Part shown: positions 29,581-41,049 of the stretch, piece by piece
Position numbering within the stretch: position 1 is the first letter of the stretch
Layout of the letters: each line of letters opens with the position of its first letter
From: an uncultured Actinomycetes bacterium
Lineage (GTDB): Bacteria; Actinomycetota; Thermoleophilia; UBA2241
Direction of reading: 5' to 3'
NCBI GenBank assembly: GCA_963725665.1
Contig: CAVRZA010000004.1
Location: 32,001-96,000 of the forward strand
Length of the DNA: 64,000 bases
The notes under the pieces: model-generated
What the model was told of the DNA's origin: nothing
The model's input: the letters and a program-made list of their open reading frames with translations, nothing else
The model's database searches: none
Position numbers and translations under genes: made by a program

Positions 29581-30574
29581 GATGGATGAGCTGCTCCTCC
29601 TCGAGCGTCTCTCGGACAGGGACCTGACCGTGCTCGCGCAGGCGGGCGGCGAGCGCGGCGGCGACGCCGCCGCGCTCGCCGCCCGCCTGCGCCTCCAGCC
29701 GGAACGCATCGACGACCTTCTCGGGCGGCCGGAGGTCTTCGCAGCCCTCTTCGGCTCGACTCAGCAGGATCCGCTGCTGGTCGTCGCTCCCTTCCTTGCC
29801 ATCTCGGTGCTGCTGGCGCGCACGGCCTCCGTCCTTGAGGAGGTCGCCTACGTGCCGGAATGGGTCGGCAGCCGGCAGCGCGTGCCCGTCTTCGAGGTCG
29901 AGCCGCTGCGAGAGTTCCTGGCCGGTCCGCTGCGGCGTATCTTCCTGGCCGACCTGCTTGCCTCCTACACGCACGTCGCGAGCGGGGCGCTCTGGGTGAA
30001 GAGCCGCCGTGGCTGGCGGCACCGCCGCTTCAGCGAGCTCGACCCGGCGCAGTTCGCGACGCTCATCCTGTCGGTGCCGCCCGAGGAGCGGCTGGCGCTC
30101 TACCGGCGTCTCGGCGACTTGGCTCTGTTCCTGACCGGCGTGTTTCCCGACTACGTCGAGAAGAGGACGATGACCCCGATCGCCGTCGAGCGGCTGCGTC
30201 GTGCGGTCGCCGGCGACAGGTGGGTGAGCGATGGCGGCCGAGGGGACAAGAGGGCGGCCGGCAGCCGAGGGGTTCAGACGGCGGCCGGCGTACTGCCTGC
30301 GGATCTGCCGGCGGACGACTCAGACGACTGGCCGGGCGAAGGCTGGGGCCGTGAGACGAGCCGCGGCGTGCCGGGCAATGTGGGCTTGCTCGAGTGGATC
30401 GGCCGGCGCTCGTACTGGCTGGCTTGGCAGGGAGTCGAGTATCGCCAGCTCGGCCTCGCGCCAGCCCTCGGCGACGTCGCCCGGCGCTTCAGGCACGCGC
30501 GCATGATCCTCAACTTCATGACCGAGCGCTACCTGTTCGAGCACCGTCAGCGCTGGTTCCCGCTGGGGTCGTAG
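29581..30574 (+). CDS. Conserved hypothetical protein
   Basis: Long ORF with coding-like codon bias; RRLGDLALFLTGVFPDY segment. Confidence 0.65.
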
Positions 30575-30624
30575 TAGGAGCGCGCAGTCCCGCGCGACGG
30601 CGGCCGCGAGCGACGCCCGCGGGC

Positions 30625-30891
30625 TCATCCGACCTCCCGCATCATGTGCTCCATCGACTCCACCTTGGCGCGCAGCTCGGCGAGGTCGGCCTTCATGGCT
30701 GACTGGACCTCACGCGTCTCCTTGGCCAGGCCCTCGTAGTCGGATACGAGCTTGCGGTACTGCTCCGTGCTTGTGCCCTTGGCCTTCTCGGCGTCGACGC
30801 CGGCTCTGCTCGCGACGAGGGTCGAGATCAGCGCGACGACGCCGATGACGATGATCGCGAGGATCAATGCTTCTGGCCATCCGATGTTCAT
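30625..30891 (-). CDS. Small membrane-anchored coiled-coil protein
   Basis: N-terminal TM helix then heptad pattern; 4-nt overlap with the ArsR gene. Confidence 0.7.
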   Translation of the reverse strand: MNIGWPEALILAIIVIGVVALISTLVASRAGVDAEKAKGTSTEQYRKLVSDYEGLAKETREVQSAMKADLAELRAKVESMEHMMREVG

Positions 30892-31226
30892 CTCTTCACC
30901 TTTCCGTCCGGTTGGTTCCCGTCGCTGAGTGTGGACACGGCCTCGATGACCCGTGCTGGTGTGAGGCGCTCGTCGAAGTCGGTCACCTCGTAGAAACGCA
31001 GCGCCTTGCCTTCGGCCGACACCTCGTGGCGTCCGACAATGAGTCCCGCCTTCTCCAGAATCTGGAGGTGCATGTGGAGCAGCGGCCGGCTGATGCCCAG
31101 CTCGCGTGCCAGTTCGCTCACGTACGCTTGGCGCTGGCTCAGCGCCGCGAGGATACGCAGGCGATGGGGGTTGCCCAGGGCGCCGAGCATCGTCAAGAGC
31201 TGATCGCCTGTGCGGTCTTCAGTCAT
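30888..31226 (-). CDS. ArsR-family transcriptional regulator
   Basis: ALGNPHRLRIL, VSELARELGISRPLLHMHL; AAGGAG RBS. Confidence 0.88.
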   Translation of the reverse strand: MTEDRTGDQLLTMLGALGNPHRLRILAALSQRQAYVSELARELGISRPLLHMHLQILEKAGLIVGRHEVSAEGKALRFYEVTDFDERLTPARVIEAVSTLSDGNQPDGKVKR

Positions 31227-31420
31227 GCTGCTCCTTCATATGTCAGAAATACATTACACATGAAGGAGAGGGCTGTCAACAAGAAGATACGGGAGTGGTG
31301 GCACGCAGTGCGTTGGCTGGTGGGAGATGCAGTGGGGTCGTGCGCCAGCGACGCGTTCACCTGAGGGCACTGTGGGTCCTGCCCCGGGGCGTCGACCGCG
31401 CGATATGATGACTGGCGCGT

Positions 31421-31497
31421 GGGCCTATAGCTCAGATGGTTAGAGCAGCCGACTCATAATCGGCCGGTCGCAGGTTCGAGTCCTGCTGGGCCCACCA
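31421..31497 (+). tRNA. tRNA with CAT anticodon, most likely tRNA-Ile2 (lysidine)
   Basis: Cloverleaf: acceptor GGGCCTA/TGGGCCC, anticodon arm GCCGA-CTCATAA-TCGGC, T-loop GTTCGAG, encoded CCA; G1-C72 pair and C4-G69/C5-G68 favour Ile2. Confidence 0.93.
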
Positions 31498-31581
31498 CGT
31501 TGTCAGATTGACAACGTTTCTCCCTGCAAACCGCTAGCTTCTGGCTACCCGGTCGCCGACCTCCCGCCGAGCGCCGCCCGA

Positions 31582-31992
31582 TCAGTCGTCAATTGGCTCA
31601 AGAGCCAGCTGCTCAATCCTGTCCTTCATGGCTTTGACCACTTCGGGGGAGTGCCCCTGCCAATCCGTGCACTCGCCCGTGACCCGCAGCGGCTCCCGGG
31701 AGCGGTATGACTTCGTCGGATTACCCGGATATTTCTTGTCCGTCAGATTGGGGTCATCCATAATCGGGCCGGTCGGTTCCACCATGTAGATTCTGCCGGG
31801 ACCTTCGCCGAGTGCCAGCTCCGCCCCCCAGGCGGCTGCATCCAGGGTGCCGGTCAGGTAGACGTAGGTTGTCATCCTATCCCGTTTACCGAAGTTAGGG
31901 GGATGGCCGGGCTCGATCAGGTCTCCTGGCTTCAGGTCAGCCCGTGTGCCATGGTAGAACCGCTGCGAACTCAGGTCGTCGATGGCTGCCAT
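31582..31992 (-). CDS. arr: Rifampin ADP-ribosyltransferase
   Basis: FYHGTRADL, AAWGAELA, RIYMVEPTG, DDPNLTDKKYPGNPTKSYRS. Confidence 0.92.
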   Translation of the reverse strand: MAAIDDLSSQRFYHGTRADLKPGDLIEPGHPPNFGKRDRMTTYVYLTGTLDAAAWGAELALGEGPGRIYMVEPTGPIMDDPNLTDKKYPGNPTKSYRSREPLRVTGECTDWQGHSPEVVKAMKDRIEQLALEPIDD

Positions 31993-32179
31993 CGGCTCGC
32001 TCCTCATACTGTTCGGCTGCGCTGCCGCGCGCCGGGGCAGGTCCGCCGGCGTCGACAACACACGCATTTCGAGACTCCTGTTTCCGTACCTTCCGGCTTG
32101 CGGCCGTTGATTATGCGGCACGACCCGGGACTTGCCGCAAGCCCCCACCTGCGCTGTATATTGAAAGTGGAAAGGAGGG

Positions 32180-32342
32180 GGGTACCGTCCTTTCCCTCTT
32201 CGCGGCACGAGAGGTTCTTCACCCTCTTCAGCAAGGCCGGCTCGATTGTCGTCGAGAGCGCCAGCATTCTCATCGAGTTCGTCGCAGCGCTGCACGGAGC
32301 TCTCCAACCGCATGCACGACACCGAGCACGCCGACGACGCGG
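32180..32342 (+). pseudogene. DUF47 (phosphate transport regulator) N-terminal fragment
   Basis: ERFFTLFSKAGSIVVESASILIEF, then ELSNRMHDTEHADD in another frame; truncated. Confidence 0.5.
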
Positions 32343-32458
32343 GTTCGAGAGTTGTCCACAGAGTGCACCTGAGGAGATCGGCGACCGTGCCGCCTGTGGC
32401 TAATGCCGGGCCTCACGCCGAGAGATCAGTATCCACCAGGCGCTGCAGTTCAATCCGA

Positions 32459-32489
32459 AAGTTCGAGAGCTGTCTGGTTAGATCCACCA
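32459..32489 (+). repeat. att-like repeat copy 1
   Basis: AAGTTCGAGAGCTGTCTGGTTAGATCCACCA. Confidence 0.9.
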
Positions 32490-32632
32490 AGCATTAGCAC
32501 GATAGTAGGGTCATTCAGACCTTGGTCTTGAGCCTGTCACCCCTGTTGGGCGGCAGGCTCTTTTCGTTGAGTTCGAGCTGTCAGGGAAGGCACCCAAACA
32601 GGACTCGAACTCACCGACTGACGCCGTCTTGT

Positions 32633-32839
32633 CTACCTGACGGGTTCGGACTTCGGCGGTCGCCCTCTTCGTGGCAACTCGCCGACGTTCTGTGGCAGAC
32701 GGCCTGCACGGAAGAGGGCGCTGCGCAAGAGGAGTTCGATGTGTGCGTTGGTGCTGCGTAGCTCATCGGACGCCCAGCGAGCCAAAGCATCGTGAACGGC
32801 CGGGTCCACGCGGATGAGCAGACTCTTTCTCTCAGGCAT
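32633..32839 (-). CDS. Arc-like ribbon-helix-helix protein
   Basis: RKSLLIRVDPAVHDALARWASDELRSTNAHIELLL. Confidence 0.8.
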   Translation of the reverse strand: MPERKSLLIRVDPAVHDALARWASDELRSTNAHIELLLRSALFRAGRLPQNVGELPRRGRPPKSEPVR

Positions 32840-32981
32840 TGACTTGAGCCTCACAGGAGGTCAGGGCTGACTCGCTCAGATCGGCAACCTCGATTTGTTT
32901 GTCTACAAGACGCAACTGTAATAAACTGATATCAGATTATAGGCCCAAGACCGTGCCCAGTCTAGGGACCAAGGAAGAGCA

Positions 32982-33977
32982 GTGAACCAACGAGCGTCGG
33001 TGAAGAAATCAGCGAGAGCGAGCCAAGCAAAGGCCGGCGCAGAGGCCGTCCAGGCTCTTGTTGTTGAGCATCTTCGCAAGACGTACGAGGGGACGGTCGC
33101 GGTCGATGACGTCTCGTTTACAGTCGCCGAGGGCGAGATCTTCGGCATCATCGGTCCCAACGGCGCCGGCAAGACGACGACGGTCGAGTGCGCCATCGGT
33201 CTGCGGACGCCCGACTCCGGAACCATCCGCGTCATGGCATTCGATCCTCACGTCGACCGTGCCCAGGTGCACGCGATCGTGGGAGCGCAACTGCAGACGA
33301 GTGCACTCCAACCCAGGCTGAGGGTCGGTGAGATCCTCGATCTCTACCGCTCCTTCTACCGAGATCCAGCCGATGTGGGCGAGCTGCTCGATGCGCTCGG
33401 GCTTCGTGAGAAGCGGAGCGCCTACTACAAGTCGCTGTCCGGCGGGCAAAAGCAGCGGCTCTCACTGGCCCTGGCGCTGGTCGGCCAGCCCAAGATCGCG
33501 ATCCTTGACGAGATGACGACGGGCCTCGATCCACAAGCCCGGCGCGATACATGGGAGTTGATCGAGGGGGTTCGCGATCGGGGCGTCACTGTCGTCCTGG
33601 TCACGCACTACATGGACGAGGCGGAGCGGCTCTGCGACCGCGTGGCACTCATCGACCAAGGACGCGTCGTGGCCATCGACAGTCCGGCGGCGTTGGCCGA
33701 GCAGGCTGGCGGTGGCAAGCGTGTGCGCTTCGTGCCATCGCAGCCTTTTGACGACCGTCTGCTGACCGCTCTCCCTGAAGTGACGAGCCTCGAACGACAG
33801 GGCCGCCACGTGCTTGTGAATGGCACGGGCGATCTGGTCAACACCGTGATCCTCACGCTGGCGACCGCCGGGGTGACGGCGAATGAAGTCGAGGTAGAGT
33901 CCGGGACGCTGGAGGACGCCTTCGTCAAGCTCACGGGTCGCCACCTCCATGAGGGAGACGAGGTGGCGGCGGGATGA
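32982..33977 (+). CDS. ABC-2 exporter ATP-binding subunit
   Basis: GPNGAGKTT, LSGGQKQR, ILDEMTTGLD. Confidence 0.92.
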   Translation: MNQRASVKKSARASQAKAGAEAVQALVVEHLRKTYEGTVAVDDVSFTVAEGEIFGIIGPNGAGKTTTVECAIGLRTPDSGTIRVMAFDPHVDRAQVHAIVGAQLQTSALQPRLRVGEILDLYRSFYRDPADVGELLDALGLREKRSAYYKSLSGGQKQRLSLALALVGQPKIAILDEMTTGLDPQARRDTWELIEGVRDRGVTVVLVTHYMDEAERLCDRVALIDQGRVVAIDSPAALAEQAGGGKRVRFVPSQPFDDRLLTALPEVTSLERQGRHVLVNGTGDLVNTVILTLATAGVTANEVEVESGTLEDAFVKLTGRHLHEGDEVAAG

Positions 33978-34753
33978 ATGCCTCCGGGGAAGGGCTTCCC
34001 GCCTCGCCGCCGCGGGCCGCGTTCGGAAGGCTCGTTGCTTGTGAAGCCAGGCTGGCGTGGAGGGAGCCGATCGGGCTGGTCTTCGGTCTTGCCATTCCCG
34101 TGGTGTTGCTCGTGATCTTCGGCGCCGTGCCGAGTTCCCACGAGCAGCAAGCACAACTCGGCGGCCTCACCGTCATCGCGGTCTACGTCCCGATTCTGAT
34201 TGCGTTCTGCATCGGGATGCTCGCGCTCTTCAGCCTCCCGCGTGCCTTGGTCACCTACCGCGAGTTGGGCATCCTGCGGCGTCTCTCGACGACGCCGCTG
34301 CCACCGAGCTGGGTGCTCGCCGCGCAGCTGGCCATCAACTTCGTGCTCGCCGTGTGGGCGCTTATCATCCTGGTTGTGGTGGGCGTCGCTGCCTTCGGGG
34401 CCGCTGCTCCTAAAAGTCCAGCAGGATTTGCCTTGGCCTTCCTGCTATCGGTCGCCGCGCTGTTTGCCATGGGCTTGTGGGTCGCGGCGGTGGCCCGCAG
34501 CGCCACTGCTGCGAACGCAATGGGAGCCGCACTGTTCTTCCCCCTGGTTTTTTTCGCCGGTCTGTGGTATCCGCAGGAGTTCATGCCGGCGGCTTTGCGC
34601 CACCTCGGTCAGCTGACGCCGCTCGGCGCGTCGGTGCAGGCCCTGCAGAGCGCAAGCCAGGGCAACTTTCCTCCGACCGGATCGCTGTTGGTCCTGGCCG
34701 CCTACGGCGTCGTTTTCGCTCTGCTGGCGGTGAGGTCGTTCCGGTGGGAGTGA
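33974..34753 (+). CDS. ABC-2 type permease
   Basis: YRELGILRRLSTTP, six TM helices, terminal RSFRWE. Confidence 0.9.
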   Translation: MNASGEGLPASPPRAAFGRLVACEARLAWREPIGLVFGLAIPVVLLVIFGAVPSSHEQQAQLGGLTVIAVYVPILIAFCIGMLALFSLPRALVTYRELGILRRLSTTPLPPSWVLAAQLAINFVLAVWALIILVVVGVAAFGAAAPKSPAGFALAFLLSVAALFAMGLWVAAVARSATAANAMGAALFFPLVFFAGLWYPQEFMPAALRHLGQLTPLGASVQALQSASQGNFPPTGSLLVLAAYGVVFALLAVRSFRWE

Positions 34754-34877
34754 CAATGGGGGGCAGATACCGCGTCGCCGCGGCATTCTGGATGCTCTCG
34801 GACACCCACAGGCTCTGGCTCCTGTTCTGGATGGGGACCGCCAACACCACCACGCTCGTGTGTGATCGGGCCGAAAC

Positions 34878-35096
34878 ATGAAACATCCCGCCGACAAACC
34901 GGGCCGCAAGCTGTTTCTGCTGCGCATCGATTGCGAGCTGTGGAATCAGGTCGAGACGCGTGCCGCGGATGATCTCCGGTCGATCAACGCGGAAGTGGAG
35001 TGGCTGCTGCGCGAGGCGCTTCGCGGCCATGATGACAGTGGCATGATGCCGAGTCGGCCCGAGCCCAGAGACGCAGAGGAGCACGAGACGCGCTGA
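34878..35096 (+). CDS. Second Arc-like ribbon-helix-helix protein
   Basis: RKLFLLRIDCELW, ADDLRSINAEVEWLLREAL. Confidence 0.75.
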   Translation: MKHPADKPGRKLFLLRIDCELWNQVETRAADDLRSINAEVEWLLREALRGHDDSGMMPSRPEPRDAEEHETR

Positions 35097-35252
35097 GGAC
35101 CGAGATGCAATTCAGTGTCGGCTTGTAGGCCGGAGGCGACGACGGGTGCCGCGATCCCCACATGTCAAACGAGCCTTCCCCCGAGTATCATTCGGCGCGC
35201 AATCCACTTGCTACAACGTCATTGGCCTAGTAGGCGCTGGACTTCGAGGCGT

Positions 35253-35283
35253 AAGTTCGAGAGCTGTCTGGTTAGGTCCACCA
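35253..35283 (+). repeat. att-like repeat copy 2
   Basis: AAGTTCGAGAGCTGTCTGGTTAGGTCCACCA. Confidence 0.9.
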
Positions 35284-35554
35284 GCGTTGACAGTTCGCCA
35301 ACGTTTTCCCTGCAAATCTTAAGCTTCTGTTGTCCGGTCGCTCACCGTAGATCCGTATCCGGCTGCTCCCCCAAACCCGGGTCTCGGTTGAAGCACCCGT
35401 TCCTGGGCAATGAGACGGGGGGCCGGGAAGGACGACGGAGCTAGCCAGATTGCCGATGACCTATACGGTCCAGGGTCAGGCGTCAAATGGTTTAGCGTCG
35501 ATGATCCGGAGAACAACCATTGGATGATTGTGCAGGAAACAAGAAGGGACGGCC

Positions 35555-35926
35555 ATGAATCCTAGTGAAGAAATTGACAATTTGATCGCGCAGAATCAGG
35601 ACTGGCGCGGTGCCACGCTAGCGAAGCTCCGCAAGACCATCCTTGAGGTTGATCCCGAGATCATTGAGGAGTGGAAATGGATGGGGTCACCAGTCTGGTC
35701 ACTCAACGGGATTATCTGTGTTGGGAATATTTTCAAGAATAAGGTGCAGCTCGTCTTCATGGACGGTGCGGCACTCAGTGATCCTGACAAACTCTTCAAT
35801 GCCGGACTTGAAGGCAACAAAAGGCGAGCTATTGACGTCTATGAAGGGGATCACATAGAAGAAGGTTCGCTAAAGACTCTTGTTCGTGCTGCCATAAGCT
35901 ACAACCAGGCAAAAGGCAAGAAGTAG
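35555..35926 (+). CDS. DUF1801 (YdhG-like) protein, low GC
   Basis: DWRGATL, IIEEWKWMGSPVW, DPDKLFNAGLEGNKRRAID. Confidence 0.88.
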   Translation: MNPSEEIDNLIAQNQDWRGATLAKLRKTILEVDPEIIEEWKWMGSPVWSLNGIICVGNIFKNKVQLVFMDGAALSDPDKLFNAGLEGNKRRAIDVYEGDHIEEGSLKTLVRAAISYNQAKGKK

Positions 35927-36212
35927 GTCTGTCGATGGGGAAGATGCGGGCGGACCTTCCGTGAACGGCGGCGCACGTATCCGTGCTCGTCATCTGAGCC
36001 TGCGTGCGTTGCCCGGGTAGTCGTAGGTAAGCCCGTCTCGGTCGAAGAGGATTTCGGCGCGAAAGTCGTCATCGAGCAGCCAATGGCTCGCGCGGGCGCC
36101 GGTAGCCGACTGACGGACTCTTCCCGCCGGTTTGGCCTCTCAATCATCGGAGTGAGGCTCCGACGCTTGTGCTACACTATTAGTATCAACCAGACTCTGA
36201 ACTTCAAGGCGT

Positions 36213-36243
36213 AAGTTCGAGAGCTGCCTGGTTAGGTCCACCA
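36213..36243 (+). repeat. att-like repeat copy 3
   Basis: AAGTTCGAGAGCTGCCTGGTTAGGTCCACCA. Confidence 0.9.
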
Positions 36244-36525
36244 CCGTTGTCAATTCGACACGCCACGCAGCGACTCGTGGTTCTTGCGCACGAGTCGCTC
36301 AAGCCGTACCTCAAGTAGCGGCGCTCGCTGGCGACTCCGGTGCCGGTGAGCCGCCCGATCGCGGCCTTGCGTGCGCTTCCACCACTTGTCCTCGCAGCCG
36401 AGAGGAGTAGGCTCAACCTGCGTGCGACACCCTCGCCATGGCTCCGCTGGCGGTCTGAGCGCGTGCGAGCCGGGGGCAGGACCACCGTGACCCGGGCGCC
36501 GGCCGGCCCGGCGAGGAGGCAGCGG

Positions 36526-39500
36526 ATGACGGCTGCGGTGAGACAGCCGAGCACGACTTTCAGGGTCTTCGTCAGCTCGACCTTCGAGGACTTCCGGGCC
36601 GAGCGGAACGCGCTCCAACGGTACGTCTTTCCGCGGCTGGCGGAGCTGTGCGCGACCCGGGACGCGCGGTTCCAGGCGATCGACCTGCGCTGGGGCGTCG
36701 GCGAGGAGGCAAGCCTCGACCAGCGCGCCATCCCCATCTGCCTTACCGAGATCGAGCGCTGCCAGCGGGTCACGCCGCGGCCCAACTTCATCGTGCTCAT
36801 GGGCGACCGCTACGGCTGGCGCCCGCTGCCCGCCCGCATCGACGCTGCGGAGTTCGAGCTGCTGCTCGCGACGATCCCGGAGGAGGATGCCGCGGTCCTG
36901 GCCTGGTCGCAAGGGCAGGCGGCGGGAGCCGAAGGCTGGTACCGCCGCGACGACAATGCGGTGCCTCCCGAGTACGTGCTACGGCCGCGCAGGTTAGTCG
37001 TGCCCGAGGGCGCGAGCGAGGAGGAACGTGAGGACGCCGCGGAGGCCGAGCGCCGGGAGTGGACGACGGTCGAGGCGCGGCTGCGGGCGATCCTTCTCCG
37101 CGCGGTGGATGCGCTCGGCTGGGCCGAGGCCGAGCCAGCGCGGCGTAAGTACGTGGCCTCGGCGACCGAGCAGGAGATCGTGCTCGGCGCCCTCGAGGCC
37201 GACGGCGCCGCCGAGCACGTCTTCGCTTTCTTCCGCACCATCGACGGCCTGCCCGCGGGCGAGTCCGCCAAGAGGTTCTGCGACCTGACGGCGTCGCCGA
37301 AGGGACTCGTCCCCGACGCGGACGCGCGGGCCAGGCTCACATCGCTCAGTGCGGAGTTGCGGGACGTGCTCGGCAGCCACGCGCTGGACTCCTACCGGGC
37401 GAGGTGGACGGGCGAAGGGATCACCACCGATCACCTGGGGACGCTGCCCGAGGATCTGAGCGACTGCTTGGGCCTGCTCGACGAGCCGGATGCGCCGCAT
37501 ACCCTCTGCGCCGATGTCTGGCGCAGCATCGCCGGCGTGATCAAGAGCGAGCTCGACCGGCCGGAGGCTGACGAGGCCATCGACCGGGAGATCGCGCGCC
37601 ACGCGAGGTTCGGCGAGGCGCGGTGTCGGGACTTCGTCGGCCGGGAGGAGGTCCGCACGGAGATCGCCGCCTACCTGGCGGGGACCGAGGCTCATCCGCT
37701 CGTGCTGGTGGGCGAGGGCGGCTCGGGCAAGTCGGCGCTCATGGCCAAAGCGGTGCAAGAGGCCGTGAGCGCACATCCGGGCGCCGTCGTCGCTGCGCGC
37801 TTCATCGGCGCCACACCCGCCGCCTCCGACGGGCGCTCGCTGCTCGACGCCGTCTGCCGCCAGCTGGCACGGGCCACCGGCGGCGACGAGGCGACGCTCC
37901 CGGCCGGGCTGTCGGACCTTTCGGTCGAGCTCGCCCGGCACCTCGCTCGCGCCACGGCGGAGCTGCCGGTCTTCGTGTTCCTCGACGCGCTGGACCAGCT
38001 CGGCGCCACCGACCCGGCTCGTGGCCTCGCTTGGCTGCCCGCGAGCCTGCCCGACCACGCCCGGCTGGTGGTCTCCACCGTGCCGGGCGCCTGCGAGACC
38101 GCTCTGCGGGCCAGGCGCCCGGAGCCGCGGTTCCTCAGCCTCGACAGGATGTCGCGCCGGGAAGGCGAGACGGTGCTTGAGATCTGGCTCGACAAGGAGG
38201 GCCGCACGCTGCAGGAAGGGCAGCGGGCGGCGGTGCTCGATGCGTTCGAGCCCGAAGGCCGCCCGCTCTATCTCAGGCTGGCCTTCGAGGAGGCGCGGCT
38301 GTGGCGCTCGTTCAGCGCGCCGGCCGAGACGAGGCTGCAACCCGGCATTCCCGGACTCATTCGAGGCAACCTGCTGGCCCGTCTGGAGGCGCCCGAGAAC
38401 CACGGCCGGCAGCTAGTGGCGCGTGCGCTCGCCGCCCTCGCCGCCTCGCGCCACGGCCTGGCGGAGGACGAGCTCGTGGCGCTGCTGTCGGCGGACGCCG
38501 ACGTGATCGCCGACTTCCGCCGCCGCTCGCCGCGCTCGCCCGCCGTCGGGCAACTGCCGGTGGTGGTGTGGTCGCGCCTCTACTTCGACCTTGAACCGTA
38601 CCTGTCCGAGCACGCCACCGACGGAGCCACGCTGCTGGCTTTCTACCACCGCGCCCTCGCCGAGGCGGCCCGGGAGGAGTACCTAGCGGATGAGCCCGAG
38701 CGGCGCGTCGTCAACTCGGGCCTCGCCCGCTACTTCCGCGGGGTGGCCGACCCGAACGGAGACGGCGACTGGCAGCCGCGCGCCCGGGCGCTGGCGGAGC
38801 TGCCGTTCCACCTGGCGGAGAGCGCGGCGGCCGGCGAGCGAGGCGCGGCGGAGGAGCTTGAGGCGCTCCTCACACAACTCGGGTACCTGGCCGCCCGGGT
38901 CGCCACCGGCAAGGCCTACGAGCTGGTCGCCGCATACGAGCTCACCGAGCCGCTGGGCCCGGCGCTCATCGAGTGGCGGGGCTTCCTGGAGAAGCACGCC
39001 CAGCGCCTGTACCAGCATCCGGCCATGCTCGTCGGGCTGGTGAACCACGAAGGCTTCGCCGCCGCCCGGGCGCAGGTGGACGACGTGCCGCACCCAGGCG
39101 TCTGGCTCCGCACGTCGCCGGAGTCCCTGCCGGGGCCCGAGCCCGGGCTCGGGCCCGAAGGCGGCGACGCGGAGGCGGTGGCCGCGGGCGGGATCGAGGT
39201 CGCCGCCAGCCTGTCCTTCTCCTCGCCGCGCGTGCTGGCGGTCGCGCCCGACCGGGAGGCGGGGTTCGTCCTCGATGGCCTCGGCATCCTGCGTGTGCTC
39301 GACTTGCGCGCCATGCGGGAGACGGAGACGACACTGCCGATCAGGCGCGAGCCGCTGCTCACGCTCGCCGCTGCGCCGGACGGCGGCGGCCTCATGGCGG
39401 TCTACGAGTCGGCGGTCGGCGAGCTCTACCGTTGCCACGAGGGCCCGGACGGCCTGCCGTCGAGCCTGGAGGCCGTGACCGCCGTCGAGTGTGGGCTGCC

Positions 39501-41049
39501 GGAGTTCGAGGCGCCGGTCGCCGTGTGGCACCGGCGCCGGTTCTGGTTCCAGGCCGGCTCGGGCGCGCTCGGCAGCGTGTCGCTCGAGGAGCCGGCGGTC
39601 GTGGAGGATCCGCTGCCGGGCGGCGAAGCCGCCGAGCTCGCGGCGCTCGTGCACGACACGGACGCGGGTGCGGCCGTGATCGTGCTGCGGGAGGCACACG
39701 ACACGCTGCTCATCGCGCCCGACGGTTCGACCCTGCGGCGGTCCGGGGTGGAGCCCGCGGCCGCCGTCGCGTGCGGCCCGGCCCGGTGTGCCGTGCTCTT
39801 CAGCGACGGCGAGCTCGTGGTCTACGACTGCGGCGCGGCGCTCACACCCGTGTGCCAGACGCGCGTCGGGGTCGTGCTGGGGCACATCGGCTGGGACGGC
39901 TCTCGGCTCCTCTGGCTGGACCCGGAACACAACGTGACGGCCTGGTCTCCCGGCGATGGCTCGCCCGCCCGGCTGCGGGGGGCCGAAAGCCTGTTCCCGC
40001 GAGGCCTGCTCAAGGTCCCGCTGGACTGGCTCCCCCGGCCCGGCGGCGGGATGCTGGCGGTCACCACGCACGGCGTGGACGCGTTCCGCGTCGCGATTGC
40101 GAAGCCGGGAGGCGCCGGCGTGTTCCAGGAGCTGTTCGGCGGCCAGGCTTGGCTGGCCGTCGACCGGCGGGGGGACGAGTGGTGGCTGGTCCGGGGCCAG
40201 CCCTCCAGCCAGGTGCCGCTCGCCCGCGCCCTCAGCGGCCGCTTCTTCTGCGCCGTGGACGGCCGCGGCAGCTTCTATGCGGCGAACGGCCATGGAGCCG
40301 ACGTCGTGGTCGACCTTGCCTCCCTGGACCGCGCACCCATCGAGGGCTGCCCCTTGGGTCTCAACGCCGCCGCCGGCGACCGGCGGGAAGGCTGCTGGCT
40401 GGTCGACCGGGCGGGCGACATCTACGCCGTCGACCCTGCCGGGCACTGCCGGCCGGCGGTGCGCTGCGAACTGCGGGAACCCTTGGGCGCCCGGCTGCTG
40501 GACTGCGGGGACTGGCTGGTGTGGTCCGGCCTGGCCAGCGCGACCTTCGCCGATGTCGGCGACGAGCCTGCGCCGACGTTGCTGTTCTACCGCAAGCTGT
40601 CGTCGGGGGCCGGCGCGACGCTGGAGCTGGCCGGCCGGTACGTGCGCCACCCGAACGAGGGCCAGTCCTCCGGCCTGTGGTTCGACGACGCCGCCGGCCG
40701 TCTCGTCTCCCTGTGGCTGGCGCCTCGTCATGAGGAGGAGCCCTACAGGCTGCTGGTCGCCCCGCTCGAGGACGCCACGGCCGGGCGCTTCACGGAGACG
40801 CCGGTCGTGGGCTTGGGCAACGTGCGATGCGCCGGCGGCAGCCTGTCTGCCGACGGCGCGTTCCTGGGCCTGCTGACCGGCGTCGGCGAGCTTCACTGTG
40901 TCCGCGTCGCTGACGGCAGGAGCGTCGCCATCCTGGCCGGCAGTCTGCCGTTCACGTCCGTGGCGGCCGGCCCGCGGGCCGCGGAGTTCTGGCTGGCCGA
41001 AGCACAGGCGCAGCCCTATCACTGCAGCGTAATCGGAGGGGACCCATGA
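36526..41049 (+). CDS. DUF4062 + NACHT/STAND NTPase + probable beta-propeller protein (NWD1/TEP1-like architecture)
   Basis: GAGGAGG RBS; RVFVSSTFEDF, IDLRWGV, CLTEIERC, GDRYGW; Walker A GEGGSGKS; Walker B VFLDALDQL; PLYLRLA; beta-rich C-terminus. Confidence 0.85.
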   Translation: MTAAVRQPSTTFRVFVSSTFEDFRAERNALQRYVFPRLAELCATRDARFQAIDLRWGVGEEASLDQRAIPICLTEIERCQRVTPRPNFIVLMGDRYGWRPLPARIDAAEFELLLATIPEEDAAVLAWSQGQAAGAEGWYRRDDNAVPPEYVLRPRRLVVPEGASEEEREDAAEAERREWTTVEARLRAILLRAVDALGWAEAEPARRKYVASATEQEIVLGALEADGAAEHVFAFFRTIDGLPAGESAKRFCDLTASPKGLVPDADARARLTSLSAELRDVLGSHALDSYRARWTGEGITTDHLGTLPEDLSDCLGLLDEPDAPHTLCADVWRSIAGVIKSELDRPEADEAIDREIARHARFGEARCRDFVGREEVRTEIAAYLAGTEAHPLVLVGEGGSGKSALMAKAVQEAVSAHPGAVVAARFIGATPAASDGRSLLDAVCRQLARATGGDEATLPAGLSDLSVELARHLARATAELPVFVFLDALDQLGATDPARGLAWLPASLPDHARLVVSTVPGACETALRARRPEPRFLSLDRMSRREGETVLEIWLDKEGRTLQEGQRAAVLDAFEPEGRPLYLRLAFEEARLWRSFSAPAETRLQPGIPGLIRGNLLARLEAPENHGRQLVARALAALAASRHGLAEDELVALLSADADVIADFRRRSPRSPAVGQLPVVVWSRLYFDLEPYLSEHATDGATLLAFYHRALAEAAREEYLADEPERRVVNSGLARYFRGVADPNGDGDWQPRARALAELPFHLAESAAAGERGAAEELEALLTQLGYLAARVATGKAYELVAAYELTEPLGPALIEWRGFLEKHAQRLYQHPAMLVGLVNHEGFAAARAQVDDVPHPGVWLRTSPESLPGPEPGLGPEGGDAEAVAAGGIEVAASLSFSSPRVLAVAPDREAGFVLDGLGILRVLDLRAMRETETTLPIRREPLLTLAAAPDGGGLMAVYESAVGELYRCHEGPDGLPSSLEAVTAVECGLPEFEAPVAVWHRRRFWFQAGSGALGSVSLEEPAVVEDPLPGGEAAELAALVHDTDAGAAVIVLREAHDTLLIAPDGSTLRRSGVEPAAAVACGPARCAVLFSDGELVVYDCGAALTPVCQTRVGVVLGHIGWDGSRLLWLDPEHNVTAWSPGDGSPARLRGAESLFPRGLLKVPLDWLPRPGGGMLAVTTHGVDAFRVAIAKPGGAGVFQELFGGQAWLAVDRRGDEWWLVRGQPSSQVPLARALSGRFFCAVDGRGSFYAANGHGADVVVDLASLDRAPIEGCPLGLNAAAGDRREGCWLVDRAGDIYAVDPAGHCRPAVRCELREPLGARLLDCGDWLVWSGLASATFADVGDEPAPTLLFYRKLSSGAGATLELAGRYVRHPNEGQSSGLWFDDAAGRLVSLWLAPRHEEEPYRLLVAPLEDATAGRFTETPVVGLGNVRCAGGSLSADGAFLGLLTGVGELHCVRVADGRSVAILAGSLPFTSVAAGPRAAEFWLAEAQAQPYHCSVIGGDP

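Follow-up and report, generated by a model that had tools for sequence, protein, structure and literature searches.

The window analysed here is a 64,000-nucleotide stretch (C4:32001-96000; contig CAVRZA010000004.1 of assembly GCA_963725665.1) from an uncultured Thermoleophilia bacterium, and it contains an island of three small units stacked behind a tRNA gene. On balance, we favour reading this island as three non-autonomous integrative cassettes that are moved in trans, probably by a tyrosine integrase. Units of this kind meet the tRNA at an exact junction, have changed position one at a time, end in the same bases as the tRNA genes they follow and have no linked recombinase. The window's genome is a metagenome-assembled genome (MAG) of 3.73 Mb with an estimated contamination of 5%.

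Direct repeats delimit three units behind tRNA-Ile2

A 31-mer matched exactly at 32459-32489, 35253-35283 and 36213-36243, all on the plus strand, as an earlier reading of the window from its sequence alone (the sequence-only reading) had reported. The match expected by chance is 0, with none found in any of 100 shuffles. Re-measured from the tRNA end at 31497, the repeats mark off modules of 992, 2794 and 960 bp, the lengths originally given. The GC content was 0.50-0.66 within the island vs 0.70-0.77 in its flanks. The extent first assigned to the repeat proved too short, as likeness between copies in fact reaches ~69 nt, with the second and third copies (R2 and R3) 87% identical. The conserved right end of a unit (R) measures ~60 nt. 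Left ends are of two main types, A and B, described below.

Over 30500-37500, the only Rfam matches were the anchor tRNA and its antisense. ARAGORN labelled this tRNA, with anticodon CAT, as Met(CAT) and not as Ile2. The genome has two other CAT tRNAs, which look like the initiator and the elongator, and the anchor resembles tRNA-Ile(GAT). Thus, by elimination among the three, Ile2 is a reasonable reading of the anchor, under tRNA identity rules that we take to hold here.

Cassettes insert directly after the last bases of the tRNA gene

The junction was read at tRNA-Ala(GGC), which is unoccupied in the window's genome (CCACCA/cttcccgctcc, the slash marking the junction) and occupied in two other loci (R..CCACCA/cttccgctc in L029 and /cttctccgctc in L050). 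The insertion point lies directly after CCACCA. These empty and occupied flanks indicate that a unit starts at the base next to CCACCA and ends with the CCACCA that closes its repeat, and no duplication was seen past the shared bases.

Cassettes were found at at least five tRNA species and fell into two overlap classes. Repeats ending in CCACCA stood behind tRNA genes ending in CCACCA (Ile2, Ala-GGC and Ala-TGC), and repeats ending in GCACCA stood behind tRNA-Arg(CCG) and tRNA-Glu(TTC), genes that end in GGCACCA. Among 211 repeat copies, 145 ended in GTCCACCA, 13 in GCCCACCA and 14 in GTGCACCA, alongside rarer forms. Tyrosine recombinases need identity within a short overlap. The match between repeat end and target end is probably the product of a recombinase that needs identity over an overlap of 6-7 bp. 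A shared GTTCGA[GC] T-loop was also considered as the target rule; it fits Ile2, Ala-GGC and Ala-TGC but fails at tRNA-Arg(CCG) and tRNA-Glu(TTC). The empty and occupied sites, the linkage of repeats to tRNAs and the order changes reported below together support the earlier proposal of successive insertions at the tRNA CCACCA.

Cassettes move singly between positions, tRNAs and genomes

A 1099-bp cassette was 99.6% identical over its full length between L031, where it follows tRNA-Ile2, and L050, where it follows tRNA-Ala(GGC) in a different MAG. Relatives were also found for each cassette of the window. Cassette 1 (arr) matched both L027, in its second cassette (93.4% identity over 668 bp), and L036, in its first (91.9% over 730 bp). 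Cassette 2 (ABC) matched L025 13414-15816 at 84.8% over 2237 bp. Cassette 3 (DUF1801) was 91.5% identical over 517 bp to part of the second L036 cassette, and 87-88% over ~1030 bp to L132, L119 and L128. Four runs of assembled contigs contained short pieces 90-99% identical over each cassette, and on one peat contig the tRNA end ran straight into a type B left end.

The order of these units differed between loci. The arr cassette is first in the window and in L036 and second in L027, where it stops near the point equivalent to window position 32164. On the metagenome contig L132, the arr repeat is followed directly by DUF1801, the 2794-bp ABC cassette being absent exactly at the repeats. In G001 the order is ABC, arr, DUF1801. 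Comparison with relatives, suggested as a check on the island, thus revealed gains, losses and order changes that fall exactly at the repeats (L132, L027 and G001). These comparisons indicate that the cassettes are real units, separately movable between positions, tRNAs and genomes.

Such exchange might need no dedicated recombinase. The ends of 30-70 nt would then act as portable homology, and RecA-dependent recombination, acting on imported DNA or between repeats, would add, delete and reorder units. Direct repeats of 29-69 nt flank every unit, so precise deletions are expected, and cassette exchange is described for tRNA-linked 'additive' islands of Alteromonas in the accessible part of one account (PMC4898812). 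However, tRNA-Ala(GGC) and tRNA-Ala(TGC) share only ~7 bases with the repeat. Homologous recombination cannot explain entry at these genes because so short a match is far below what it needs. Repeat ends also vary with the ends of the target tRNAs, in two classes. We consider RecA-dependent exchange quite improbable as the source of the island.

No recombinase is linked to the cassettes

The window had no match to PF00589, PF00239, PF01548 or PF01797, and an integrase hidden Markov model (HMM) found nothing in it. Pfam and the HMM thus agree with the earlier statement that the window lacks a recognisable recombinase gene. PF00589 gave 18 matches in the window's genome, none of them on contig C4. 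Over the loci searched first, the integrase HMM matched 2 of 6854 frames, neither inside a cassette. It found no match in L220-L232 and one in L235-L244, within a tRNA-Cys island.

Across loci we defined 70 complete units of 377-6943 bp (median ~1.6 kb, 171 open reading frames [ORFs]). The integrase HMM detected a tyrosine recombinase, whole or as a remnant, in 0 of these 70. Pfam searches placed 131 cassette ORFs in 88 families, the 25 commonest of which were all cargo and included no recombinase. Nor was there a recombinase among the 25 commonest of 121 families in a random 133 of 382 neighbouring ORFs.

The sequence-only reading had suggested looking for an element with the same ends that encodes a recombinase; no integrase-bearing element with cassette ends turned up in any locus analysed (MAG samples). 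Two integrases near arrays were rejected as linked enzymes. The one on the G001 array contig lies 13 kb past the last repeat with no repeat-like site beside it, and the one found in G065, 11.5 kb downstream, is part of a tRNA-Cys island. In G030 an integrase fragment lies upstream of the tRNA, on a 1.9-kb contig too short to judge linkage.

The units had at first been described as either cassettes mobilised in trans or eroded relics. As dead relics, they would be autonomous elements that inserted serially at the tRNA and lost their integrases, along with most other genes, through deletion; the repeats would be fossil attR sites and nothing would move. Some decay was seen. The window contains a degenerate repeat at 32343, L129 and L175 contain ORF-less units of 377 bp, tandem degenerate repeats lie 77-118 nt apart in L114, L125 and L161, and in G001 arr and DUF1801 stand together, where a search allowing up to 9 mismatches found no repeat between the two or beyond them. 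The window's genome also has classical tandem islands whose repeats are true tRNA halves. By contrast, none of the 70 complete modules retained a detectable integrase fragment, both ends are conserved over the 211 copies with the length of an overlapping micro-ORF kept, the same cassettes occur in differing orders, and the 99.6% identical pair sits at two tRNA species in two MAGs. Dead relics are thus an unlikely explanation of the island. Of the two original options we favour cassettes, with mobilisation in trans as the presumed route.

The right end resembles, but does not copy, a tRNA 3' half

Three parts of the repeat, GTTCGAG, CTG and the last 6-7 bases, agree with the 3' half of the tRNA, a likeness already noticed in the sequence-only reading, but the repeat's spacing is 5 nt longer and it is no true copy. 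An intermediate form, GGTTCGAGTCCACTTAGGCCCACCA, was found in L026, with tRNA-like spacing and a type B left end directly after it. Given the shared parts and this intermediate, the repeat is best seen as the diverged tRNA 3' half of an ancestral attachment site. Folds of R1-R3 were no better than those of shuffled sequence (z = -0.02 to -0.77), and no inverted-repeat arms were visible by eye in the repeat core.

Beyond the three island copies, the window's genome had no further copy at up to 3 mismatches. A fourth, with 4 mismatches, lies on another contig 1.5 kb behind tRNA-Ala(TGC), where it closes a zinc-type dehydrogenase cassette. Of 36 further genomes from the family, 11 had the repeat, vs 0 of 24 belonging to other families in the class. 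When each species was represented by one genome, a scan returned 31 stretches, a single one of them lying outside MAGs titled Thermoleophilia, Actinomycetes or Actinomycetota. Metagenome contigs yielded at least 120 stretches with the repeat, and viral contigs gave 0 matches. Copies lay downstream of tRNAs in the same orientation, in arrays of up to seven. The repeat is thus not dispersed through genomes but linked to tRNAs and oriented with them, in keeping with the tRNA-anchored array first described.

The exception in the species scan was L059, a low-GC contig titled Candidatus Saccharibacteria with a perfect repeat core and a type-B-like left end. Its presence in the bin of another phylum reflects either transfer or a binning error.

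A micro-ORF overlaps the right end

On the minus strand, each right end is overlapped by a micro-ORF. In every repeat it starts within the putative crossover heptamer, at a GTG formed by the complement of TCCAC/CA, and its consensus is V-D-L-(T/S)-(R/G)-Q-L-S-N-(L/F)-R-x-E-(V/L)-x-R-L-(L/V/F)-(D/E). A length of 19-26 aa was found in 159 of 211 copies vs 33 of 201 and 47 of 199 in two control frames. The 33-aa form at R3 also closes the DUF1801 cassettes of L119, L128 and L132.

Codons 1-9, which coincide with the DNA site, were conserved at all three positions. In codons 10-19 the entropy of third positions was 1.4-1.9 bits, and that of positions 1-2 of Arg, Glu and Leu codons was 0.4-0.9 bits. 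In the micro-ORF frame 62% of single-base codon differences were synonymous vs 11-54% in the other five frames, and the compared region contained 1 stop vs 11-24 in the others. A profile of the peptide matched 51 of 89 genomes of one Thermoleophilia family, covering all 11 genera sampled. Pfam searches with five micro-ORF peptides returned nothing meaningful at E up to 10. From these patterns of variation, we conclude that the micro-ORF is probably a real small gene, translated now or recently.

It was never found as the start of a long protein; every long frame around the motif is open on the upstream side and not downstream. The purine-rich complement of TTTCTCCCTGCAAA, a hallmark of type A left ends, offers a Shine-Dalgarno-like pentamer in 77 of 93 type A copies. 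Its use by the micro-ORF across the type A palindrome was rated low; the motif is also found in classical islands that have no micro-ORF. Upstream signals would be supplied by whichever DNA is joined to R, either the next cassette or, in a circle, the unit's own left end.

A bolder reading makes the peptide a working part of the system. The island would then belong to a dedicated capture system of one Thermoleophilia family, integron-like in its working though not in its build. Its portable site of ~60 nt, derived from a tRNA 3' half, would let cassettes dock onto the CCA termini of a range of tRNA genes; a peptide of 20-24 residues, starting within the crossover site, would act, for example, as a recombination cofactor or switch, and its expression signals would arise only when R is joined to a left end, whether in a circle or an array. 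The overlap of 6-7 bp would set the specificity classes. We give this reading only a small chance of being right.

Left ends are of two main types

Type A consists of the palindrome GTTGTCA(3-4 nt)TGACAAC followed by GTTTCTCCCTGCAAA and often by CCGGTCGC motifs, with TTTCTCCCTGCAAA as its other hallmark. It came after 93 of 211 repeats, and the same left end follows a tRNA or a repeat at many loci. The five outer pairs of the palindrome were kept in 88-100 of 102 copies. No compensatory change was found in it, and its 82% of Watson-Crick pairs equalled that of shuffled pairings.

Type B came after 22 of 211 repeats and is a block of ~125 nt conserved in 25-31 copies. In order, it comprises a -10-like GATAGT, two hairpins (the first small, the second terminator-like and bearing a T run) and the inverted pair GAGTTCGAGCTGT / ACAGGACTCGAACTC, made of GAGTTCGAG motifs. 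It also contains GAGTTCGAGCTGTC, which is identical to the repeat core, and GGACTCGAACC, which complements the tRNA T-loop and is one arm of the inverted pair. In the window the terminator-like site lies at 32542-32557; overall, the promoter and terminator scan did no better than on shuffles. RNAalifold found no consensus structure on the alignment used, and there was no Rfam match to type B. The block may encode a small RNA or serve to bind protein.

These features raise the possibility of an enzyme other than a tyrosine recombinase, either an IS110-type DEDD recombinase guided by a type B RNA or a single-strand HUH transposase inserting 3' of a fixed target. The promoter-like box and hairpins of type B, its repeat-core segment and its T-loop complement are consistent with a guide, and the window's genome has 9 matches to PF01548 (IS110). 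The cassettes also lack terminal inverted repeats and target duplication, and their ends are the target bases. However, the window's genome has no match to PF01797 (Y1 HUH), type A cassettes lack the type B block, and neither the absent RNAalifold consensus nor a right-end hairpin no better than shuffled sequence points to a folded guide or end. No end motif is common to the cassettes and the two identical IS110 copies, and near the 9 IS110 loci the sole match to a type-B-like pattern used all 5 allowed mismatches. An enzyme of either kind is highly improbable. As a separate observation, the nine IS110 transposase matches (for example C4:418809-420258, and others on C11) include two copies of 1450 bp that are 99.9% identical; these elements appear active and are unrelated to the cassettes.

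A link to tyrosine integrases comes from type A. Its TTTCNCCCTGCAAA motif stands directly after several tRNAs of the window's genome that bear classical islands with tRNA-half repeats, four of these tRNAs having integrases within 8 kb, and it also follows tRNA-Cys beside an integrase in L238. Because TTTCNCCCTGCAAA is common to both, type A cassettes are tied to the integrase islands of the lineage.

Other arrangements were seen at tRNAs of the same lineage. Tandem islands of the classical kind, whose repeats copy the tRNA 3' half exactly, sit at tRNA-Arg(CCT), tRNA-Pro(GGG) and tRNA-Lys(CTT) of the window's genome (C1:468624-503900, C8:229729-239755 and C2:450694-452581), their smallest units measuring 1.15 and 1.8 kb. 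Directly behind several of its tRNAs, a TTTCNCCCTGCAAA-like motif comes first and paired direct repeats, such as TTGCCGAC, come next. In L071, L073, L078, L079, L086, L057 and L170/L172, tRNA-Ile2 or a repeat was followed by a left end of a third type, TGTCGTGTTCCGGGTGA...GTCACCTGATGCTTGACAG.... One unit of this third type, in G070, is 2.2 kb long and encodes a membrane transporter. Its terminal repeat truly copies the tRNA 3' half, and the portion read contained no integrase.

Proposed mechanism of cassette insertion

In the mechanism that we favour for the cassettes, the recombinase would be encoded elsewhere and would most likely be a tyrosine integrase like those behind the lineage's classical tRNA islands. 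The donor would be the junction between R and left end in a circular cassette. The target would be the last 6-7 bp of the tRNA gene or the identical end of a resident cassette, with the sequence (T/C)CCACCA or, in the second specificity class, GCACCA. Repeated insertion would produce head-to-tail stacks, and excision followed by re-insertion would shuffle their order. The class of the enzyme, the circular intermediate and any role of the micro-ORF are what we infer from the ends and their targets.

Several points weigh against this proposal. Mobilisation in trans and the enzyme class are presumed, no recombinase having been pinned down; a recombinase that occurs singly could escape both Pfam censuses, and the integrase HMM was built on a small base of 9 integrase domains from the window's genome. 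Only 3 of the 13 CCACCA-ending tRNAs of that genome have the GTTCGA[GC] T-loop, and these are Ile2, Ala-GGC and Ala-TGC. The four runs contained no circle or clean excision joint, an uninformative result given that they comprised assembled contigs only and held at most 0.20 of the words of the stretch. For the micro-ORF, the plus-strand frame that shares its wobble positions was itself 54% synonymous, so that the strand call rests mainly on stop counts and residue conservation. Finally, every genome compared is a MAG.

Relation to known systems

Islands anchored on tRNA genes are a main route of gene gain in bacteria and are usually explained by elements with their own integrase. Of the features of a classical tRNA island, 3' tRNA insertion in tRNA orientation was found here. 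An integrase inside the element and a distal repeat that copies the target tRNA were not found. One repeat serves Ile2, Ala-GGC and Ala-TGC, whereas other tRNAs of the genome have true tRNA-half repeats.

Integron arrays that lack an integrase are known as clusters of attC sites lacking integron-integrases (CALINs). The island resembles integron arrays in its one-orientation stacks, its conserved end site and a recombinase outside the cassettes. However, no IntI, attI or Pc was found, with PF00589 absent from C4 and the integrase HMM silent in the window. Right ends also lack the fold of attC sites, imperfect inverted repeats that form a single-strand hairpin; they folded no better than shuffled sequence, and their variation follows codon positions and not pairing. 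Integron cassettes mostly hold a single ORF without a promoter and share one orientation, whereas cassettes here carry 1-4 genes in both orientations, and the array is anchored on a tRNA 3' end. The label 'integron-like' in the sequence-only reading is thus an analogy only, the defining features of integrons being absent. Non-autonomous derivatives of IS200/IS605 elements would need a Y1 HUH transposase in the genome and subterminal hairpins at their two ends; the window's genome has no PF01797 match, the palindrome is confined to the type A left end and no right-end hairpin was supported.

Xer-dependent modules (dif modules and IMEX) have 28-bp XerC/XerD sites at their borders, and dif modules lie between such sites in alternating orientation on plasmids. 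The dif modules of Acinetobacter are recombinase-less units that shuffle, according to the accessible parts of two papers (PMC6449649, PMC13141974). As far as these go, the cassettes resemble dif modules in their small size, lack of a recombinase, resistance and toxin-antitoxin cargo, short sites and an enzyme encoded elsewhere, but differ in that their sites are chromosomal direct repeats behind tRNAs.

Cis-mobilizable elements (CIMEs) are flanked by att sites, lack integration and transfer genes of their own and can stand in tandem at one site, as set out in the available portion of PMC6323972. The island is similar in its att-like flanks, lack of integration and transfer genes and tandem arrangement at one site, with conserved ends and 70 units without a recombinase. 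On the same partial account, CIMEs are deletion derivatives that ride with an adjacent integrative and conjugative element (ICE), whereas no linked ICE or integrase was found here. The units also differ from CIMEs in being small (median ~1.6 kb), in having a non-tRNA right end of their own with a micro-ORF and in using at least five tRNA species.

Cassettes stacked at a tRNA and shared between strains are described for the tycheposon islands of Prochlorococcus (10.1101/2020.12.28.424599), and 'additive' flexible genomic islands at tRNA genes are a further case (PMC4898812), both going by the portions of text available. The resemblance lies in serial tRNA insertions that push older units inward, variable cargo and cassettes found in distant strains. 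The same portions describe integrases or partial tRNA copies in those islands, whereas the units here have no integrase and their repeat does not copy the target tRNA.

Stacks of cassettes at tRNAs and recombinase-less shuffling modules are thus already known from other systems, to judge from these partly available sources. New here are a standard right end that does not copy its target, the use of several tRNAs in two overlap classes, the small size of the units and a protein-constrained micro-ORF over the site. A limited literature search found no description of such a site, a standard non-tRNA right end with an overlapping micro-ORF.

The soil and peat actinobacterial family uses these very small, integrase-less units in at least 51 of 89 genomes. 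They carry genes for resistance (arr), efflux, toxin-antitoxin, redox functions and regulators across tRNA species and genera. With its micro-ORF over the putative recombination site, one site appears constrained both as DNA and as protein. Should the trans-acting enzyme and the overlap rule be confirmed, the cassettes would stand beside integrons as a second cassette system, one that evolved independently and in an uncultured lineage. Such islands will escape annotation pipelines that rely on finding an integrase.

Cassette features and cargo

Table 1. Features of the island in the window (positions count from the first base of the window).
Feature	Position	Strand	Description	Evidence
Anchor tRNA	31421..31497	+	Anticodon CAT, 3' end GCCCACCA	ARAGORN; Rfam tRNA 71.8 bits
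Cassette 1	31498..32489	+	arr, 992 bp; between tRNA end and repeat R1	
Left end, cassette 1	31498..31570	+	Type A: palindrome CGTTGTCAgatTGACAACG, then GTTTCTCCCTGCAAA + CCCGGTCGCC	
arr	31582..31992	-	Cargo; rifampin ADP-ribosyltransferase	Pfam Arr-ms E = 5.7e-46
Additional repeat core	32343..32371	+	Degenerate, within cassette 1	Repeat family D2
Micro-ORF 1	32413..32487	-	24 aa + stop: VDLTRQLSNFRIELQRLVDTDLSA	
Right end R1	32421..32489	+	Cassette 1; ends TCCACCA; putative recombination site	
Cassette 2	32490..35283	+	2794 bp; two ribbon-helix-helix (RHH) genes + ABC-2 exporter	
Left end, cassette 2	32490..32614	+	Type B	
Small RHH	32633..32854	-	Cargo; HicB-like	Pfam HicB E = 0.002, under curated cut-off
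ABC transporter ATPase	32982..33977	+	Cargo	Pfam ABC_tran E = 1.5e-28
ABC-2 permease	33974..34753	+	Cargo	Pfam ABC2_membrane E = 3.1e-22
Arc-like RHH	34878..35096	+	Cargo	Pfam Arc E = 0.0054, under curated cut-off
Right end R2	35215..35283	+	Cassette 2	
Micro-ORF 2	35219..35281	-	20 aa + stop: VDLTRQLSNLRLEVQRLLGQ	
Cassette 3	35284..36243	+	DUF1801, 960 bp; type A left end 35284-35350	
DUF1801 gene	35555..35926	+	Cargo	Pfam DUF1801 E = 2.4e-19
Micro-ORF 3	36140..36241	-	33 aa + stop	
Right end R3	36175..36243	+	Cassette 3, the last array unit	
Distal flank	36244..36260	+	Starts with partial type A palindrome (ccgttgtcaattcgaca)	

The positions of all features of the island are given in Table 1. 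Pfam agreed with the cargo originally named (arr, an ABC exporter with two RHH genes, and DUF1801), both RHH assignments falling below their cut-offs. The degenerate repeat core within cassette 1 is a relic. The flank beyond R3 is either the native flank of the tRNA or the leftover of a lost unit.

The 70 complete units were mostly 0.4-7 kb long with 1-4 cargo genes in either orientation. Frequent cargo comprised HepT-like proteins, zinc dehydrogenases, DUF1801, TetR, CMD, Arr, AraC and ABC proteins. The ORF-less units (L129 79-455 and L175 3965-4341) contain just two parts, a right end and a type B left end. Together with the paired degenerate right ends of L114, L125, L161 and L051, they are minimal or collapsed cassettes.

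Just beyond the array, at 36520-41049 (plus strand), lies a gene for a protein of ~1500 aa with DUF4062, an AAA_16/NACHT-type STAND NTPase and an NWD1-like winged helix. This DUF4062/STAND NTPase gene thus places a defence-like architecture beside the insertion hotspot. Elsewhere in the window's genome, ARAGORN listed first a tRNA with anticodon CTA (labelled Pyl) at C6:343702-343774, possibly a suppressor or a false call, and second a tRNA-SeC at C11:550041-550138.

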